64,000 bases of DNA, taken from positions 1,216,001-1,280,000 of the forward strand of contig OY729428.2 in the NCBI GenBank assembly GCA_963422375.2, given 5' to 3'. The position numbers were made by a program, and so were the translations under genes. The notes beneath the pieces were generated by a model. That model was not told the DNA's origin and did not search any database. It was given only the letters and a program-made list of their open reading frames with translations. Source of the stretch: Bryobacterales bacterium. Its GTDB lineage: Bacteria; Acidobacteriota; Terriglobia; Bryobacterales; UBA6623. Below, piece by piece: positions 23,330 through 58,856 of this stretch; position 1 is the stretch's first letter, and each line of letters opens with the position of its first letter.

Positions 23330-24753
23330 CAGAATCCGTTCCTCGGCGGGCGAAGGCCGGTCCCGCTTCGTCGCCACCACAGTCACGTCTCGGTAGTGCA
23401 GGCTCATCGGCTGCCGCACGCGCCCACCCTCCGCCCTGCGCATACGCCAACGGCAGCACCACGCCCCCGCCCGGCTTGACCTTCGCTTGCGCGACATCGA
23501 TGAAGTTGGACGCCAGACTGGCGTTGCCGTGGCCCGCCGGCTCTCTGATCGCTTCCCTGACGGCCCTCTGAATGCCCGCCATCGCCCGCTGCTCGGCCTC
23601 GGACTCCTCGAATCCCGCGAACGATGGCACGGGCGCCTCCGCGGATTCGTGGTTCGTCGGCCGCGTGAAAGGCGGGCTCATGATGACCACCTCCACCGAC
23701 TCGTGCGGCAGGTCCAGGTCCGGCATCTCCACCGCCGTGCCGCGGCGACCTCCGCCCCCGTGCCGAACAGCGCAGACGACGAGGGCAGGCTGTAGAACGT
23801 CGCAAGGAACTGGCGGTCGCCAATGATTCGCTGGAACATGCGCCCGGAGAGGTCGTTCATGCTCGTCGCGCCCACCGCTACGAGCTCGCCGGCCACCTCG
23901 GTGAGCCGCCCGAGGATCCGGTCCGACATCGGCACGTCCACATGCGCGAGCAGGTCCGAAGCGATGCGAAAGATCGGCCAGTAATTGATGCCCCGCGGGA
24001 TTCGGTCCCAAACTTCTCCGATCCCGCCCTTGAACGTCCGGCCAGGCACGGCTCGGCACTCCTCGGGGGACGGCGGGCCGTACACCGTGGCGATCAAGGA
24101 ATGGAACACCAGCGCGTTGGCAACGATCGCTATCGCCATCCTCGAAGTCTGGATCCCGTCTTCCTGCCGCTATATGCGCGCCATGCACCGCAGCGGCATC
24201 TGCGCCGCAGGCCGTATGTCGTCGCGCAGGACTGCGGCACATTCGCGCACGGTATCCTCCAGCACGGCCATGCCTCGCGCGACGATCCGCTCCGACAGGG
24301 GCAGCTGCTCGACTACGGCGGCCAGTTCGTAGACCGTGGCGGGCATCCAGCCTTCGGAGGGCCAGCGGACCGGGGCGGTCTGGCTGCCGGACACAGCGCA
24401 GATGCGATACTCGGCACTCTCAATCCGACTCCCCAAGTCAGATTGGGACTCCGGCAGTCACCCCGGAACGCGGACTGCCAGCGCCTGATCGACCACCGAG
24501 CCGCTCGCGCCGACACTCATGCCAGCCGACGGGCCGCATCCCGCTCGACGGTTCGGGCCGGCTTGAACTCGGTCTCGAGGACCACCGCCAGGCCGCGCGG
24601 GTGTCGCACGACGATATCCGGCTGAACTGCGGCCCGCTCGAATACGCCGCGCTGCTCCGCGCCAACGTGGTCCCGCCAGAGAGGGTGCTTGCGACGCAGC
24701 ACTCGCGGGAGTTCTACGTTGAAGGCTCGCTCGCCCGTCTTCGGCATCCGCAT
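23330..24753 (-). pseudogene. Frameshifted, internally deleted Type IIG-like restriction-modification enzyme
   Basis: Pieces in several frames: N-terminal PD-(D/E)xK-like QPDIVV...VLETEF, INYWPIF, DLSGRMFQRIIGDRQFLATFY, and VVIMSPPFTRPTNHE (degenerate NPPF motif IV). Confidence 0.7.
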
Positions 24754-51130: not shown

Positions 51131-51214
51131 CCTCTTCCCGAGGGCGGGACGCTCCTGCGGGCGGCGAACGACACCGGTTGCGCGCTCCACCTAGCCCGCA
51201 TTCGTGAATAATGC

Positions 51215-52827
51215 GGGCTAGGGAGCCTCGACTTCCTGCACAAAGCACCCAGCCGCAGTGCTGCGCAGTTCCTGCCCCTGTTCATCGAGGAGGGCATCGA
51301 CCCAGGCCGAGTCACGGGCAAGGGCGAGCGCGCCTACGACGCCTACATGCCGAGCGAGTGCGACCTAGTGATCGCCAACCCGCCCTACACCCGCGCGGGC
51401 GGCCCGGGCACCGCCGAGAACACGGACTGGAACCCGATCTTCGGCTCGGCCTGTCGAAGGCGGACGCCAAGACCATGAAGGGCGCCTTGCGCCGTACATT
51501 GGACGGAACGCCCGCTAGCCTTTACGCGAGCCTGGGCTAGGCGTTCGCCGTCTTGGCCTGCGAACGCGTCAAAGCAGGGGGGCGCGTGGCCTTGGTTCTG
51601 CCTGCAACCGCCCTGACGGGCAGCCGCTGGGCCCGGTGCGCACGCTGCTGCTGGAGCGCTTCGACGTCGAGTGGGTCGTGGCCAGCCACGACAGCCGCAA
51701 CCGCCACGCCCGGAACGGACTGCCCGGACGGCGCTTCGTCACGTTCTCGGAATCGACGCGCATCGCCGAGACGCTGGTTGTGGCAACCAAGAGGGCCGGA
51801 GGGGCCCCGAAAGGGGCCGGATGGACGCGCTTCGTCAATCTCCGGCGGAATCCGGACAAGCCCATGGACGCCATGGTGATCACCCGGGCGCTTCTGGCGG
51901 AGGCCAGAGAGGGCGGAGACAAGGCCTCCGGGGTGGCGTTCGGAGACGTTCTATGGGGCGAATTGCTCCCGGTCAGGCAATGCGACCTGGAAGGGAGCCC
52001 TTGGATTTACGGAGCCTTTTGCCAGGGAAATCTCGTCAGGGTCGCGACGCGCCTCGCCAGCGAAGGTGTAGCGAAGGTGTATGGCGCATCGCGGAATGCG
52101 AAATCCGCATCCCGATCGCCCCGCCGGCCTCCTCGTGCGAACTAGGGCCGTACGAGATGCAGATCAAGAACCCCACCCAAGGGCTGTTCGATATCGTGGA
52201 CACCGACGATCCCTCTTGTACCGGCCACCCCGCTCTTCTGTGGCATCACGGCCACAAACGCATCGTGTCGCTCGCGGCTAAGGCCAACGCGAGACTTCGC
52301 GAGCGGCCCGGAATCGATCCGACCGCTCAGTCCGCAATGCTGGCGAAAGCGGGAAGATTGCAGCTTGCCCGCGAACTCGGCCATGCGCCTCAGCGCTTGG
52401 CAGCCGTGCTCACCGACGAAGCAATGCTCGGCGTGCGGTCGTGGATCACGCTCCGGCCCAAGCGGCCGGCTCCCGGCAAGGAGGAAGCCTTGTGCCTCTG
52501 GCTGAACAGCACGCCGGGCCTACTGCTGCGCATCCTCCGCTCGAATCGCCCCTATCTCGGGCGAAGCACCTTGCCGCAGGAAGTCGCTCGAGGGTTGCCC
52601 GTCATCGATGTCGACGCCTTGGCCTCGGCTCGGCTCGGGCGCACACCCTGTTCGACGATCTCATGCGCAAGCCGCTCCAAGGCTTCGCGGGGCTGGCGGA
52701 AGATCCCGTCCGCCGAGAGCTGGACCGAAGGCTGTTCGAGGAGGGCCTCGACTGCCGCGTGGGCAGCGAGATCGACCGGCTCGCCCAAGCATTGAATCGC
52801 GAACCGACGATCACGACCAGACACTGA
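51215..52827 (+). pseudogene. C-terminal part of a Type IIG-like R-M enzyme (N6-adenine MTase plus specificity region), frameshifted
   Basis: RLGSLDFL...CDLVIANPPYTRAGGPG, GGRVALVLP, FSESTRIAETLVVA, LCLWLNSTPGLL across several frames; TAG at 51538. Confidence 0.7.
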
Positions 52828-53046: not shown

Positions 53047-53880
53047 TCAGGTCGAATTGTCGCTTCGGCGCAGGCGGATTTCGATGCGCCGACGCCCGGG
53101 CAAGTCCCCCGAGGTCGAGCCGTCTGAGATCGTACCGTTTCGCAGAACAATCTGCGCGCCCGAGAGAGGGATCAGACGGAATTCCCTCAACGCCTGCGAT
53201 TCGGAAAGGATCTGCGCGACCGCAGCCGCGCGCGCAAACCCGAGCCCGGCGTTGTCGGCCGCGACGAGCGCTGCATCTGGGTCCCCGTTAAGGAACGGAA
53301 GCAGCTCCTCGTCCAAGGTGCTCGCGGAAAATACGGGGCGCTCATCGGTGTGGCCGACGATCTCAACGGTGTACGTTCCGAAGCGAGCGCCGATCTTGAC
53401 AATCTCGGGAACGACCTGCGCATGGAGCAAATTCTCGAAATCCAACCTGACCTCGCTCGAATTCGTCTCGAAGGAGTACCCGTCGGCTTCGTCGAGACGA
53501 ATGATCGGCGGCCACTGGTGACCGTCGGGAGGATCTTCGCCACCCAGCGCGTCCTCGATCTGGTCTTCCAAGCCCTCGATCACCCGGTCCTGGTCCGATA
53601 CCTTGGCAAGCGCCGAGTCGAGCTGCCGTTGCAGGCTCGCCATGTCTTGCGGCGTGGGGTTCGGCTTGACGGGCGATTGCGATTCCGGCGGGGTCTCGTC
53701 TTCCGGGGGCGGTGCCGCCTGGGACGGCATGACGCTGCTGACATAGGCCAAGAGGAGGAGCAAGATCAGGAAGGTCACGACCAGCATGATCTCGAGGGCG
53801 CTGGCACCGAACGCCTGGGCGTTGCGCTGGACCCTCTTCACCGTGACTGCGTAGGAGCTGGGATGCCTGTCGAAGCCCAT
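53047..53880 (-). CDS. MotB/ZorB-like protein: single TM, linker, OmpA-like peptidoglycan-binding domain
   Basis: TM ALEIMLVVTFLILLLLAYV with an intramembrane Glu; FETNSSEV, EIVGHTD, NAGLGFARAAAV, RRRIEIRL; GGAGG SD. Confidence 0.85.
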   Translation of the reverse strand: MGFDRHPSSYAVTVKRVQRNAQAFGASALEIMLVVTFLILLLLLAYVSSVMPSQAAPPPEDETPPESQSPVKPNPTPQDMASLQRQLDSALAKVSDQDRVIEGLEDQIEDALGGEDPPDGHQWPPIIRLDEADGYSFETNSSEVRLDFENLLHAQVVPEIVKIGARFGTYTVEIVGHTDERPVFSASTLDEELLPFLNGDPDAALVAADNAGLGFARAAAVAQILSESQALREFRLIPLSGAQIVLRNGTISDGSTSGDLPGRRRIEIRLRRSDNST

Positions 53881-53962
53881 GGCGGCCTATTCCTCCCGAT
53901 TCAGTCGCCGCGCTCGGAGGCCCGGCACGGCCGATTCCTGTCCGCCGAGACCGGCTGAGCCA

Positions 53963-54955
53963 TCAGAACAGAAATGTGAACAGGGCAACCGCCAGCCAGA
54001 GCGCGACCATCGCGGAGGCCGCCAGCGCCAACGACGCCAAGACCCAAGAGACGCCCCTGAAGAGCCTTCCGCCGGCGCGTTCGGCATCCTGTCTCAGGGA
54101 CGGAGTCGAGAATCTCGAGAGAGCCTGCGAGACGCTCTGCGACGCCAGCCCCTGGGCTCGCGTCGCGTCCGCTTGGGCCGTGGCGGTCTGCTCGATCTTC
54201 GTCGCGACCCGCTCGAGGCTCTCGATCGCCTGCCTGAACCGATCTTCGTCGTCCGCCACCAGTCCCGGCAGCGTCTCGACGAAGGCCTGCAGGGACTGCG
54301 CCGCGACCTTGAGCTCGGTCGCGGCACTCTGGATGCCCGCGCTCCCGAACGTCCTCTCGAGCGACTCGCTGTAGCTCACGAAGCCGTGTTCGAGTTCGCC
54401 TGCCTTTTGCCTGACGACGTCTAGCAGCCCTGCGAGGTGGTCCGTAGTCAGGTTCGCCTGCTCCCGTAGCTTCGCGGCGGCTTGGTGGAGCTGGTCGCGC
54501 ACGTCCTCGTAGGTCGAGTCGATGTCGACGACCGCGCCCTGCGACATGACGACGCGCAAGCAAAGTCCGACGATCGTCGTCCAGAGAGCCGTGCCGAAGG
54601 CCGGCAGGAACGAAATCACGACGTTCGAGACGGACGGCGCGTCCTCCCCCTGCAATTCGAGGCCGATCACGGTGAGACCGGCTGCCAGCGAGGTCGTGGT
54701 GAACAGGAAACCCATGTAGTAGAGGCTCTCGCCGGTCTCCTCCATCGACAGCCTCAGCGTGTCTAGGCAATATCCGCGATACCCGAACATCACGGCAGTC
54801 AGCAGGACGGGAACCAAGAACAGCCGGACGAGGATGTTGTCGATTTCGATCAGGCCGACGATCATCGAAAGCGCGAACGCCACGCCGACGATCACGAGGA
54901 AAACCAGCGTGTGCTCCTTCGCTGGGTCGCGCCCGGCATCCCTACCACTCGCCAA
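53963..54955 (-). CDS. MotA/TolQ/ExbB-like membrane protein with coiled-coil tail and extra C-terminal TM
   Basis: Four N-terminal hydrophobic helices including YYMGFLFT and FGTALWTTIVG (ExbB/TolQ-like AL.TT..G), helical coiled coil, C-terminal TM; TTG start overlaps the upstream gene. Confidence 0.75.
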   Translation of the reverse strand: MASGRDAGRDPAKEHTLVFLVIVGVAFALSMIVGLIEIDNILVRLFLVPVLLTAVMFGYRGYCLDTLRLSMEETGESLYYMGFLFTTTSLAAGLTVIGLELQGEDAPSVSNVVISFLPAFGTALWTTIVGLCLRVVMSQGAVVDIDSTYEDVRDQLHQAAAKLREQANLTTDHLAGLLDVVRQKAGELEHGFVSYSESLERTFGSAGIQSAATELKVAAQSLQAFVETLPGLVADDEDRFRQAIESLERVATKIEQTATAQADATRAQGLASQSVSQALSRFSTPSLRQDAERAGGRLFRGVSWVLASLALAASAMVALWLAVALFTFLF

Positions 54956-55835
54956 CAGGAACCACCTCTTCCACGGTCGCGTTCTGCGAGTCGAAGAACT
55001 CCTCCCACCACTGGGTGTGCTCCGGTCCCTGTATGTCGGGGATCAGGGCGTACTCCATGCGATTCAGGAGCAGCCGCACCGCGGAGCCGCGGAAGTCGAA
55101 TCGCATCCCCCCGGAGTCGGCGAAGTCCTCGAACTCCCCGAGGCGCATCGACGGGCCCAGGTCGCCGAACGAGACCGGGACTCGCCCGGGAGTCGCGAAG
55201 TTTTGCGGCACGACGAAGTCGGACAGAACCGTCAGCGACTTCGAGGCGTGCTCGAATTCGGGGTTGCCGAGAACCAGCCGCGCCACCCCGCCGAGCGAGT
55301 CCACCAAGCTGTAGCGGTAGTCGGGACTCCAGCCCGACAGGTCCTCGACGATCTGGCGGAACGGATTGAGGAACAGTTCCCGGTACCGCTGCTCCGCGAG
55401 GCGCGGGTTGCCCGTCAGGGAGCTCACGCCCGAGCCGTCGCCGGGATTGCAGAACCTCGCCACGGGCTCGAATCGCGCGCCCGTGTCGTAGTTGACTTCG
55501 TAGATCTCGATCAAGGCACTCTTCGGCAGCGTGCCCAAGGTCCTTTCGATCTCCCTGCGGACCTGCCGAATCGTGTTGGGCGATTCCGGGACGAATTGCT
55601 TCGTCACGTAGTCGACGCGCCGGTTGCGCTCGAACAGCAGCACCTCGAGGTGAGGGATGTAGCGGGTGTTCTGCGGGCAGAGGGTCGCTTCGTCGAACGG
55701 AACGACCTGCGGACTTGTCAAGTAAATGTAGCCGAAAAAGGCCGCGCAGAGCAGCACGCAGCCCGCCATCACCCAAGTCGAGGTCCGCTCCCCCCCGGAC
55801 CGGCGAGACCGCCTTCTCCGCCTTGATCGCGCCAC
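54942..55835 (-). CDS. Membrane-anchored extracytoplasmic protein, possibly a degenerate VWA fold
   Basis: GTG 55835 with GGGAGGG SD; Arg-rich N-terminus, TM, DEATLCP, FCNPGDG, LTVLSDF. Confidence 0.7.
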   Translation of the reverse strand: MARSRRRRRSRRSGGERTSTWVMAGCVLLCAAFFGYIYLTSPQVVPFDEATLCPQNTRYIPHLEVLLFERNRRVDYVTKQFVPESPNTIRQVRREIERTLGTLPKSALIEIYEVNYDTGARFEPVARFCNPGDGSGVSSLTGNPRLAEQRYRELFLNPFRQIVEDLSGWSPDYRYSLVDSLGGVARLVLGNPEFEHASKSLTVLSDFVVPQNFATPGRVPVSFGDLGPSMRLGEFEDFADSGGMRFDFRGSAVRLLLNRMEYALIPDIQGPEHTQWWEEFFDSQNATVEEVVPVGEW

Positions 55836-55852
55836 GCCGCTTCCCTCCCGGG

Positions 55853-57157
55853 TCAGAGACCCCGCTGCGACCCCTTGTAGGCAGCCAGGACCTCTCCGCA
55901 CTGCTGGGCGAGCTTGTCCCGGCTCACCCGGGCGAATTCGGCAACGACCTCCGGATCCAAGTGTTCCTCAACCGGCGGCGCGTCCGCCGCCGGCGCCTCG
56001 GGGACGACTACCGGTTCCTCTTCCGGGCAATGCACCGCCTGGACGTATTCGATCTTGGAATGAGCCTTCCGGCGCTCGCTGCGATGCTTGGCGTCCAGTT
56101 CGCGCAAGCGGCTCAGCATCGTCTCGGCGTTCGACAAGGCCGTCCTGTACTGGCTCACGTACGCGTCGATTCCGCGAATGCCGTCGTTCTGCAGCTCGGT
56201 CACCGCCTCCACGGCATCCTCGTACTGTCCCTGGTACTCCTCCTGGGACTTGGCGAGGGCCCTGGCTCGCCGGCTGTACCCCGGGTAGGGGTCCTCGCTG
56301 GTGTAGCCCTTCCACGCCCCGAGGCCGGCCGACATCATTCCCATTCCGAAGAGCATCCACGACATGAAGTCGGACACTCCGAAGTAGTCGGCGGAGAAGG
56401 CGTCCCAAGCGCGCCGCCCCGCATCCATCACCTGGTTGTAGCCTTCGCTGGACAGGAGCGCCTCGCGGTAGTGCGCCACCAGCAGATTGAACAGGACAAG
56501 GATCACGGCACCGAAGAAGATGCTGGCGAACCCGAGGCTCTTGGAGGACCAAGAGCGGGCGTTGACCAGGCGCGCCGCGTTGCCCACGCAGAAGGCGCCG
56601 CCGACGTTGATCAGCGCGATCCCCGCGGCAACGCTCCAGCCCTGCAGCAGCCCTCCTTGGGCACCGATCGCGAGCAGGCTCCCGTTGAGCGCGGTCTCGG
56701 CGATCGCCGCGAGCACCGCGATCAGCGCGTGGCGCAGCTTGCTCTCCGGGTAGTGAGGCTCGTGGCCGATGTCGTTTTCCTTGCGGTAGCGCTCGTAGTC
56801 CCCTAGCCGCGCGGTGCATTCCCTGCGCAAAGCGGCGAGCTCGGCGCCGTCCTGCTCCTTGAGGCTCGCGAGCTCGTTCAGCGATTCCGCGAGGCCCCCT
56901 TCGATTTCGGGCCGCACGTCGCGCACCTTCATCCGGTCAAGGTACGCCGAACGCTGGCGCGAGCAGTAGTCTTCCAAGTCGTGGAGATGGAGCTCGGCCG
57001 ATTCCTTGAGCGCCGCGCGCACGATCTTCGTCTCGGCAGACGGATCCGGGGACCCCAGCCTGCCTAGTTTCGCGCCGAGCAGCTCAACGTCCAGCTCCGG
57101 CCAGCCCCCGGCCTCAAGGGAAGTATCGGGGCCGGGCTCCTTGATTCTCCTCAGCAA
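55853..57157 (-). CDS. Four-TM membrane protein with N- and C-terminal coiled coils, unknown function
   Basis: Hydrophobic helices with polar residues (AETALNG, ALINVG, FNLLVAHYR) and DPYPGY; first gene of a tight operon. Confidence 0.75.
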   Translation of the reverse strand: MLRRIKEPGPDTSLEAGGWPELDVELLGAKLGRLGSPDPSAETKIVRAALKESAELHLHDLEDYCSRQRSAYLDRMKVRDVRPEIEGGLAESLNELASLKEQDGAELAALRRECTARLGDYERYRKENDIGHEPHYPESKLRHALIAVLAAIAETALNGSLLAIGAQGGLLQGWSVAAGIALINVGGAFCVGNAARLVNARSWSSKSLGFASIFFGAVILVLFNLLVAHYREALLSSEGYNQVMDAGRRAWDAFSADYFGVSDFMSWMLFGMGMMSAGLGAWKGYTSEDPYPGYSRRARALAKSQEEYQGQYEDAVEAVTELQNDGIRGIDAYVSQYRTALSNAETMLSRLRELDAKHRSERRKAHSKIEYVQAVHCPEEEPVVVPEAPAADAPPVEEHLDPEVVAEFARVSRDKLAQQCGEVLAAYKGSQRGL

Positions 57158-57278: not shown

Positions 57279-58856
57279 CTAGGCCGCCGCGCCCTCCACG
57301 AGCCGCCGGGTAAAGTCCCGCATCCTGCGGTCCATGTCCGCCACTCTGTCGGGCTCGCGCTCCGCGAGATTGCTCTGCTCGGTCGGATCCGCGCGCAGGT
57401 CGTAGAGCTCCGGGCCCTCCTTCGTGATAGCACTGAACTCCCGCTCGCGTGCCCCGGAGTTCTCAACGAACCAGTGGTAGCTCCACTCGTCGTGCCGGAT
57501 GGAGACGCTCTGGTTGTAGTGGCAGCACACGGCTGCGTCGCGGATGCGCTCCTCCTGCCCGCGAATCAGCGGCATCAGGCTCCGGGACGTCATATGGGAC
57601 GGCCGGTCGATGCCGAGCCAGTCGAGAATCGTGGCCGTCACGTCCGTTTGCTGAGTGTAGGAGTCGACCCTCGCAACGCCGTCGCCGGACGGGTCCCGGA
57701 TCATCAGGAGCGTGCGCGCCAGCTCCTCGTATCCCCACGCGCGGGCCTTGCGGACGATGCCGTGGTCGCCGAAGGGCTCGCCGTGATCGGTCATTACGAC
57801 AAGCAGCGTGTCATCGTACATGCCCATCCGCCTGACCTCGTCCAGGAAGTGACCGACCCAAGCGTCCACGAAGCGGACGACCGCGCCGTAGAGCGAGAGC
57901 ACCTGGCGCAATTCCGTCTGGTCCAGGTAGCCCATCGTGTCGCCGGGTACCGGGCAGATGTTGCGCACGGCCCAGCTCGCGAAGTCGGGATCGACGAGCT
58001 TGAGATAGCTCTCCGGCGGGTCCCAAGGCTCGTGCGGGCAGAAGCTGTCGATCCAGAGGAACAGGTTCTCCTTGCGGGGCTGTGCTGCAAGCCAATCGAG
58101 ACCCGCCTGCAGGACCCGGGGGGTGAAGTGGTCCTCGTCGGCCTTCCACGCGTGGCGGTTGGCTAGGTAGGTCCGCGTTTCCCTTGCCTCGTCCGGCCGG
58201 ACTCCTCGCGGCTTGAAGAACGGGGCGACGTCGACGGCGGAGACGATCGCGGGATCGCGCACGTAGGGGTCCTGCTCCTGGCCGCGAATCCACTTGACGT
58301 CGTCGAAGCCCCGGGAGAAGCCGTACGAAGGCTTGTGGAGGTGGTAGGTGTCGCTGACCAGGGACGTGCGGAAGCCCTCGCTCCAGAGGATCTCGGGCAG
58401 CAGGGGATGGTCCTCCGGGTACAGCACCTGCCAGCGCCGGAACGGATAGGTGAACCTGCCCGTCAGCAGGCTGGTGCGGACCGGCACCGTCGGCAGGCCC
58501 TCCGGGTAGGAGTGCGAGAAGAAGGTGGACTCGGCGGCGAACCTGTCGAGATTCGGGGTGGGCACCCTGGAGCTGCCGAAGGCCCCGAGATGGTCCCAGC
58601 GAAAGCTGTCCAGCATCAGGACGATGACGTTCCTGCCGTTCCACTGCTTGCGGGTGGCAGGCCCCCAGGTCGGAGGCGAGAAGACTCGCTCCCGGCCCTT
58701 CAGGGTGTATGCCGCGTGATCGAAATCGGAGACCGGCGCGGGAGCTGTCGTGTCGCCGTCATCGCCGCAGCCCCACAGAGCGGGCGATGCCGCCAGCAGG
58801 GAAGCGGCGGAACTCTTGGCGAACTGGCGGCGGCTCGCCTGCGGCACGTCGGTCAT
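57279..58856 (-). CDS. Tat-exported sulfatase/alkaline phosphatase superfamily hydrolase with Thr at the formylglycine position
   Basis: SRRQFAK Tat motif with lipobox-like LWGC; LDSFRWD, PTVPVRTSLLTGR, PHEPW, TDHG, ELYDLRADPTE. Confidence 0.85.
   Translation of the reverse strand: MTDVPQASRRQFAKSSAASLLAASPALWGCGDDGDTTAPAPVSDFDHAAYTLKGRERVFSPPTWGPATRKQWNGRNVIVLMLDSFRWDHLGAFGSSRVPTPNLDRFAAESTFFSHSYPEGLPTVPVRTSLLTGRFTYPFRRWQVLYPEDHPLLPEILWSEGFRTSLVSDTYHLHKPSYGFSRGFDDVKWIRGQEQDPYVRDPAIVSAVDVAPFFKPRGVRPDEARETRTYLANRHAWKADEDHFTPRVLQAGLDWLAAQPRKENLFLWIDSFCPHEPWDPPESYLKLVDPDFASWAVRNICPVPGDTMGYLDQTELRQVLSLYGAVVRFVDAWVGHFLDEVRRMGMYDDTLLVVMTDHGEPFGDHGIVRKARAWGYEELARTLLMIRDPSGDGVARVDSYTQQTDVTATILDWLGIDRPSHMTSRSLMPLIRGQEERIRDAAVCCHYNQSVSIRHDEWSYHWFVENSGAREREFSAITKEGPELYDLRADPTEQSNLAEREPDRVADMDRRMRDFTRRLVEGAAA

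Follow-up and report, generated by a model that had tools for sequence, protein, structure and literature searches.

The 64,000-nucleotide stretch of Bryobacterales DNA analysed here (the window, to which all coordinates refer except those prefixed with a locus label, L plus a number) carries on its minus strand a compact four-gene operon, A to D, encoding a four-helix membrane protein, a membrane-anchored protein with a vWA fold, a MotA/ExbB-type subunit and a MotB-like subunit. The operon is a real, widespread and apparently undescribed variant of the 5:2-motor systems typified by MotA, TolQ and ExbB. A and B are its invariant core, also present without the motor; the genomic link of the operon to exported nucleases, as read from gene fusions and neighbourhoods, is strong, and the defence signal around it is moderate. 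Tentatively, at somewhat less than an even chance, we predict from these genes that the operon is an undescribed envelope defence against incoming DNA.

The four genes and their products

A (55853–57157, 434 amino acids, TTG start), B (54942–55835, 297 amino acids, GTG start), C (53963–54955, 330 amino acids, TTG start) and D (53047–53880, 277 amino acids, ATG start) all lie on the minus strand, with a 17-bp gap between A and B, a 14-bp overlap between B and C and an 82-bp gap between C and D, just as an earlier note on this DNA had described four co-oriented reading frames. Codon-position GC is of the coding type in all four (GC3 0.80–0.88, GC2 0.45–0.46). Contigs from three public sequencing runs (X3, X4 and X5) span both the operon and the adjacent pseudogene with no differing letters and no insertions or deletions listed; contigs from X6 span the operon region in small pieces only. 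The agreement of X3–X5 indicates that the intact frames of A–D and the frameshifts of the neighbour are both real, confirming that the operon is unbroken beside decayed DNA.

On sequence evidence, C is a remote subunit of the MotA/TolQ/ExbB family. It has four N-terminal transmembrane (TM) segments with about 15 residues between TM2 and TM3, a link so short that C is without the rotor-engaging domain of MotAB-type motors. PF01618 matches 21 of 39 C-family N-terminal domains at E ≤ 0.05 (best 1.9e-5), compared with 2 of 39 for the next family; the window's own C is not among these matches, and the homology, together with the MotA/ExbB-type assignment proposed earlier, holds at the level of the family only. 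The C proteins share six residues without exception (44/44): T86, T127, G82, G121, G130 and R134. T86 and T127, whose codons lie at 54698–54700 and 54575–54577 on the minus strand, answer to the Thr/Ser pair that lines the pore of 5:2 motors on the last two TM helices. R134 is followed by a helical tail of 196 residues in the window and of 177–435 residues (median 304) in the family. An additional hydrophobic helix (about 298–330) closes the tail in 7/7 members of the window's subclade versus 1/37 others, and a basic-aromatic stretch ends it in 18 of those 37; such ends suggest that the tip of the tail may be attached to the membrane. The tail profile matches coiled coils in general, ZorA included. 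Full-length matches of C to ZorA, chemoreceptors and apolipoproteins were rejected as coiled-coil noise, and a ZorA match in PADLOC (E 7.9e-5) falls in the coiled-coil tail and is non-specific. A profile of the N-terminal domain of C returned 0 matches among PDB sequences.

D consists of a single TM helix, a linker and an OmpA-like domain (about 121–273) predicted to bind peptidoglycan. The MotB/OmpA-like identity first read from the window is upheld by the OmpA-like motifs G176-H-T-D179 and N210/L213/R217 and by an acidic residue, Glu30 (codon 53791–53793, minus strand), in the TM helix. This Glu occupies the position at which the partners in 5:2 motors have Asp; it is present in 39/39 aligned D proteins, and the D proteins of an out-of-sample metagenome set also carry a TM Glu. 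The sole divergent D seen with a TM Asp (L125:8683–9363, minus strand) is a natural comparator for the ion-coupling residue. NCBIfam matches of D to TssL-long, MotB, YiaD and Pal (E 1e-4 to 0.08) are all far under the cut-off, a profile of the D clade matches the PA0833 OmpA-like and MotS domains at E 0.003, and a profile of the TM helix gave nothing useful against PDB sequences; relatives of D are named 'OmpA family protein' in RefSeq/GenBank. In numerous D proteins, such as L059:13357–14385 and L018:13946–14875, the OmpA-like domain is replaced by another, unnamed periplasmic domain that has a PxCW...CRF motif and a weak likeness to TolR/ExbD (TM-score 0.51, ESM Atlas).

In MotB, according to the portion of PMC6663468 drawn on here, exchange of Asp for Glu lowers proton flux and motility. 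Taken with the many loci that have no enzyme partner, the uniform Glu of D could mean that C–D has no useful rotation and is a gated ion leak that depolarises the infected cell, an abortive defence with A–B as the gate. We regard this as very unlikely: D24E MotB is still motile in that account, so that a Glu-based motor can work, the stator-relevant pore threonines and the peptidoglycan-anchor motifs are kept, and the nuclease fusions described below would be left unexplained.

B has one N-terminal TM anchor followed by an extracytoplasmic domain (about 60–297). Its AlphaFold2 (AF2) model (pLDDT 82) gave 43 Foldseek matches at E ≤ 0.001 (best 4.6e-5), the matches listed being vWA-domain proteins, and vWA domains throughout the list returned by VIA (Z 10.9, root-mean-square deviation 4.3, 171 residues aligned), which substantiates the anchored VWA-like protein of the first description; a B profile found nothing useful among PDB sequences. 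C53 and C129 are conserved. At the position of the metal-ion-dependent adhesion site (MIDAS) the family has a D-x-T/S-D motif, with D69 in 47/49 proteins. The window's B has a degenerate E69-R-N-R72 at this position, retains only S205-D206 and is without an intact MIDAS metal site (DxSxS...T...D).

Domains of the vWA type serve in adhesion and as interaction modules, and a role as force transducers has been proposed for vWA proteins beside 5:2 motors (PMC12204202, in the part considered here); the operon could instead be an envelope force transducer serving adhesion, surface sensing or wall maintenance, in which the motor pulls or retains the vWA domain of B, as in SiiAB or in the motor-linked vWA systems. 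The exchange of the OmpA-like domain of D for one with a weak TolR/ExbD likeness would suit such a role, as would the absence of a nuclease from most loci. The TM helix of the window's B has neither His nor Asp, however, and its stalk is short (relatives were inspected by eye and are uncounted); no adhesin or secretion system recurs; and the repeated nuclease fusions and adjacency would be unexplained. We consider this role unlikely.

A, an inner-membrane protein, is predicted from hydropathy to have four TM helices (about 144–166, 173–199, 204–236 and 264–286), flanked on both sides by long helical bundles that are predicted to be cytoplasmic. The AF2 model is all helix (pLDDT 94), and four polar residues in or near the membrane, E154, N158, N184 and R231, are invariant in 145/145 sequences. 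No match was found in Pfam or NCBIfam; PADLOC gave a weak LmuB match only (E 0.029), Foldseek gave nothing at E ≤ 0.001, and the fold searches, in which a known fold or a pore-forming effector was considered, returned generic helical bundles only, the best VIA hit (Z 12.7) being a designed three-helix bundle with a score in a range common among helical proteins. In the ESM Atlas A matches unnamed clusters only, and phage genomes yielded no match to an A homologue. The possibility that A is a second MotA was rejected (probability 4.9% in a profile–profile comparison with C). The family is large, a profile search finding 3,704 clusters at 50% identity, so that it represents thousands of unannotated clusters in several phyla.

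Spread of the operon and the A–B core

A was found in 9/61 related genomes, 8 of them among the 30 of the same genus, at different sites, and the C domain in the same 9/61. The loci fetched from nine relatives have the order A-B-C; D is there as well, at two of them in the overlapping wider loci. Conservation of the four-gene order, a point left to be checked when the operon was first noted, extends across several phyla. Among 80 genome loci, A is accompanied by B in 80, by C in 37 and by D in 36, and the distances of A correlate better with those of B (0.80) than with those of C (0.65). No conserved cytoplasmic fifth gene or recurring soluble partner was found among the clustered loci.

Loci without a motor mostly come from two lineages with conserved synteny, Latescibacterota and a Hyphobacterium-like one, or are cut off by a contig edge. 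A C-family domain was found elsewhere in 0/10 genomes with motor-less A–B, using a search that recovered C in A-bearing genomes as a positive control; two other genomes with motor-less A–B hold a separate full operon. A tree built with FastTree places the motor-less copies of Latescibacterota within motor-bearing branches, a pattern that suggests loss as the origin of motor-less A–B in this phylum. The earlier note saw in the operon a system made up wholly of membrane proteins, with the motor driving a membrane effector. A conserved four-gene membrane unit is indeed what is found, but nothing marks A as an effector, A–B persists in genomes without any C-family gene, and what recurs as an optional partner is an exported nuclease. 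A gene that follows motor-less A–B in Latescibacterota has a P1/phospholipase C-type N-terminus by eye and no Pfam match, and is uncounted below; at another locus a lipoprotein without a Pfam match (L140:6449–6874), directly upstream of motor-less A–B, has a PD...E.D motif that we presume may be nuclease-like.

In even samples of two classes, seed genomes included and one genome unscored, A is present in 24/401 Alphaproteobacteria and 10/400 Gammaproteobacteria. Of these, 20/24 and 9/10 loci were fetched, and the resulting 29 comprise 15 four-gene loci, 12 with A–B but without C–D, one A–A and one broken. Tandem pairs of A paralogues with no adjacent motor occur at L096:9914–12930 and L130:6129–8609. 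In three of the 12 motor-less loci (L131:7056–14425, L134:6388–13122 and L136:1076–4948) A–B is directly followed by a VirD4/TraG coupling protein (PF02534, E 4e-30 to 2e-39); L131 and L134 continue with small genes and a serine recombinase, and have restriction-modification (R-M) or ATPase defence cargo upstream. These VirD4-linked loci look like an unnamed family of integrative elements. A also occurs on 24 plasmid records, of which 11 are predicted to be conjugative, and the operon is found on rhizobial plasmids such as pRL11. It can be argued from the VirD4 genes, from the recombinases that end L131 and L134 and from the conjugative plasmids that A–B serves mobile elements as an accessory for DNA transfer or entry exclusion, with motor and nuclease as additions that aid export of the element's own DNA or block rival elements. 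VirD4 is nevertheless confined to 3/29 class-sample loci, the A proteins linked to it are divergent, and full operons have no recurring transfer genes, so we consider this role quite unlikely.

Nuclease partners, defence genes and a proposed mechanism

Nucleases with predicted export recur as partners of the operon. In L058, L064, L071, L076 and L114 a staphylococcal-type nuclease (SNase) is fused to the predicted periplasmic C-terminus of D, with the DGDT, RLxGIDAPE and DxYxR motifs intact in 4/5; both OmpA clades of D, separated with 100/100 support, contain such fusions, implying at least two fusion events. SNase genes are adjacent in L063 and L118, and on plasmids a thermonuclease gene lies beside the operon in 6/9 annotated regions viewed (from the 24 plasmid hits); a profile built from the plasmid thermonucleases was used to find SNase at the other loci. 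The same position is taken by a NucA-type nuclease (PF01223) in L056 and by a GmrSD_C/HNH nuclease in L026 and L125, and L113 has a phospholipase D-type (PLD) protein (PF13091) on one side and, on the other, a protein without a Pfam match that has what we take to be an HNH motif. These families are mutually unrelated, and most of the intact linked nucleases start with a signal-like hydrophobic stretch. Within a survey that covered the families with seeds or Pfam matches, a linked nuclease, adjacent or fused, is present at 7/37 full loci of the first set and at 4/15 full loci of the class samples; in the clade that includes the window's D, 7/11 members have one. In the metagenome set, where many loci are on short contigs, SNase, HNH-type and NucA-type partners were found at 6/64 loci (5/28 clusters); three of the six are without a 5' end, so that an export signal is not visible, and in L185 D is separated from the SNase gene by a transposase-like gene.

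Twenty control regions of 8 kb contained one weak SNase-like match, unconfirmed by Pfam, and none of the other families. The genomic background of SNase is 136 matches in 76/101 genomes, or about 1 per 2.1 Mb (three matches come from the unpublished genome G104; the result is unaffected), and against it the presence of SNase within a few kb of 2/14 alphaproteobacterial operons has a chance probability of about 3e-4 to 2e-3. The genome of the window contains unlinked homologues of HNH-type (42% identity) and P1-type nucleases.

Defence genes in the neighbourhood were surveyed with PADLOC on 109 proteins located within 4 kb of 20 sampled loci and on 116 others that came from 18 control regions in those genomes (proteins cut to 400 residues; two further control regions gave no gene calls). 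Matches at E ≤ 1e-50 were found near 7/20 loci versus 0/18 controls (p 0.006). A type III CRISPR locus is interrupted by one four-gene operon, which sits between its cas6 and cas10 genes (L117:5970–14198), and a few of the first 37 loci, for which there is no control, have R-M, Qat, Thoeris-like or Cas2 neighbours. The patchy spread within the genus and the plasmid copies were also counted for defence. The defence role that the earlier note proposed is in this respect plausible, although the support from gene context is moderate and weakens at a looser threshold.

The mechanism that we propose would combine a predicted proton-driven C5:D2 motor with A–B as a surface-binding module. By analogy with known 5:2 motors, C would ring two D helices, with T86 and T127 facing Glu30 of D, the OmpA-like domain of D would grip the peptidoglycan, and ion flow would turn C together with its tail. 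A would form a complex with B, whose vWA domain would recognise, in the periplasm, either an entry machine or disturbance of the envelope, and A would pass this signal on to the motor. Motor and A–B together would bring the exported nuclease to the site at which phage or plasmid DNA enters, where the DNA would be cut on the outer side of the membrane, in the periplasm. Where no nuclease is linked, as in the window, a copy might recruit an unlinked exported nuclease or act by an ion leak. The complete picture, a new class of extracytoplasmic bacterial immunity with a Glu-based 5:2 motor, a vWA sensor on a four-TM scaffold and a periplasmic nuclease that destroys the DNA of phages or plasmids while it is being injected, with A–B reused beside VirD4 as a DNA-entry platform, is doubtful as a whole.

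Several observations weigh against envelope defence. The window's operon has no linked nuclease, and its genome (96% complete) has no SNase match; no nuclease was detected at most loci, including large, uniform metagenome clades; and the MIDAS-like acidic motif is lost in the subclade of the window's B. Exported nucleases are also used in nutrition and competence. The PADLOC threshold of 1e-50 was picked after the data had been seen, at 1e-15 the counts are 12/20 versus 6/18 (p 0.09), and full operons alone give 3/12 versus 0/18 (p 0.054). Housekeeping genes flank many loci, related loci are not independent in the enrichment counts, and SNase and defence genes both cluster in accessory DNA, inflating both enrichments.

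Some of the same data would fit a role in nutrition or transformation, with the unit importing or processing DNA from outside the cell, the motor energising import as ExbBD does, B capturing the DNA and the nuclease cutting it to a size fit for import. The partners belong to non-specific exported nuclease families, many loci lie among metabolic genes, and in the Latescibacterota and Hyphobacterium-like lineages motor-less A–B resides at a fixed chromosomal site. Yet the neighbours that recur at full operons include no TonB, no outer-membrane receptor, no comE/comF and no nucleoside-transport gene, and the patchy spread, the insertion sequence (IS) and plasmid contexts and the defence neighbours fit an accessory defence better, which makes DNA uptake an unlikely function. 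Envelope defence remains our preferred reading. The cultured hosts (Rhizobium johnstonii 3841, Pacificibacter, Marivivens and Paracoccus) and the natural D–nuclease fusions make the system directly testable.

Flanking DNA and comparison with known systems

The operon lies between a methyltransferase pseudogene and a sulfatase-fold gene, and no flagellar, tonB, tol or zorC–G gene is adjacent, in keeping with what had been noted for flagellar, tonB, tol and zorCDE genes. The pseudogene (51218–52827, plus strand), outside the unit, was delimited by tblastn with an intact 985-residue homologue from L164, of which it covers residues 452–985 in five pieces with four frameshifts; it is the 5'-truncated remnant, the 3' half, of an R-M-type methyltransferase fusion gene. 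A Pfam search of the pieces gave zero matches; the intact homologue has DPACGSG and NPPY, which we take to be methyltransferase motifs. An element of about 30–34 bp with several genomic copies (51190–51223) is located at the point of truncation. Upstream of the operon, the sulfatase-fold lipoprotein (57279–58856, minus strand) has a Thr (T-V-P-V-R) at the usual Cys/Ser position. Another methyltransferase-like stretch (23421–24118, minus strand) adjoins a low-GC dip at 22–24 kb. No sigma-70 promoter-like site was found for the operon, and terminator-like sites are at chance level.

Among known systems, the operon is most readily compared with Zorya I–III, with which it shares a MotA-like protein with a long helical tail followed by a single-TM, OmpA-domain protein (PMC11946911 and 10.1101/2023.12.18.572097, as far as these sources were used). 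Judging by position, T86 and T127 of C parallel T147 and S184 of ZorA, and N210/L213/R217 of D have the same spacing as the mutated ZorB residues N152/L155/R159 described in the relevant part of PMC11946911; a nuclease as the likely effector is a further likeness. The gene orders given there, zorABCD, zorABE or zorFABG with soluble partners, differ from that of the operon, however, which is thereby outside Zorya I–III, and PADLOC found no ZorB–G match for A, B or D, in agreement with the view that this is not a described Zorya type. The operon has two additional membrane genes, A and the vWA gene B; D has Glu in place of the Asp26 given for Zorya; and C has four N-terminal TM segments and a shorter tail that often ends in a membrane-seeking segment. 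Its nuclease is exported or fused on the periplasmic side, whereas ZorC and ZorD of Zorya I act in the cytoplasm in the published account as used here. Should the nuclease link be functional, this defence would cut DNA in the periplasm, whereas the effectors of Zorya I are cytoplasmic.

The motor-linked vWA proteins of PMC12204202 also have a membrane-tethered vWA gene beside a TolQ/MotA-like gene. Those covered by the part of that work used here have either an SHLS His motif, with tetratricopeptide repeats (TPR) and a paired tolR, or an Asp helix of their own that replaces TolR; B has neither, the operon has a separate MotB-like D, and A is without a counterpart there. The SiiAB proteins of Salmonella SPI4, as far as the source goes, are likewise a MotAB-like pair with an accessory role for an adjacent envelope module, but in their case this is a type I secretion system with a giant adhesin, neither of which is among the recurring neighbours of the operon. 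The literature searched, supplements not covered, contains no description of the operon, and a listing among predicted defence candidates is possible. Features in common with MotAB, ExbBD and TolQR are a TM hairpin of the PF01618 type, an acidic residue in the helix of the partner and a periplasmic domain resembling that of OmpA or ExbD; the operon differs from them in having no linked TonB/TolA or flagellar genes, and in the Glu of D where the partner helices of MotA, TolQ and ExbB have Asp. To the 5:2 motors the family adds a natural variant with Glu in place of Asp, and a new partner module.

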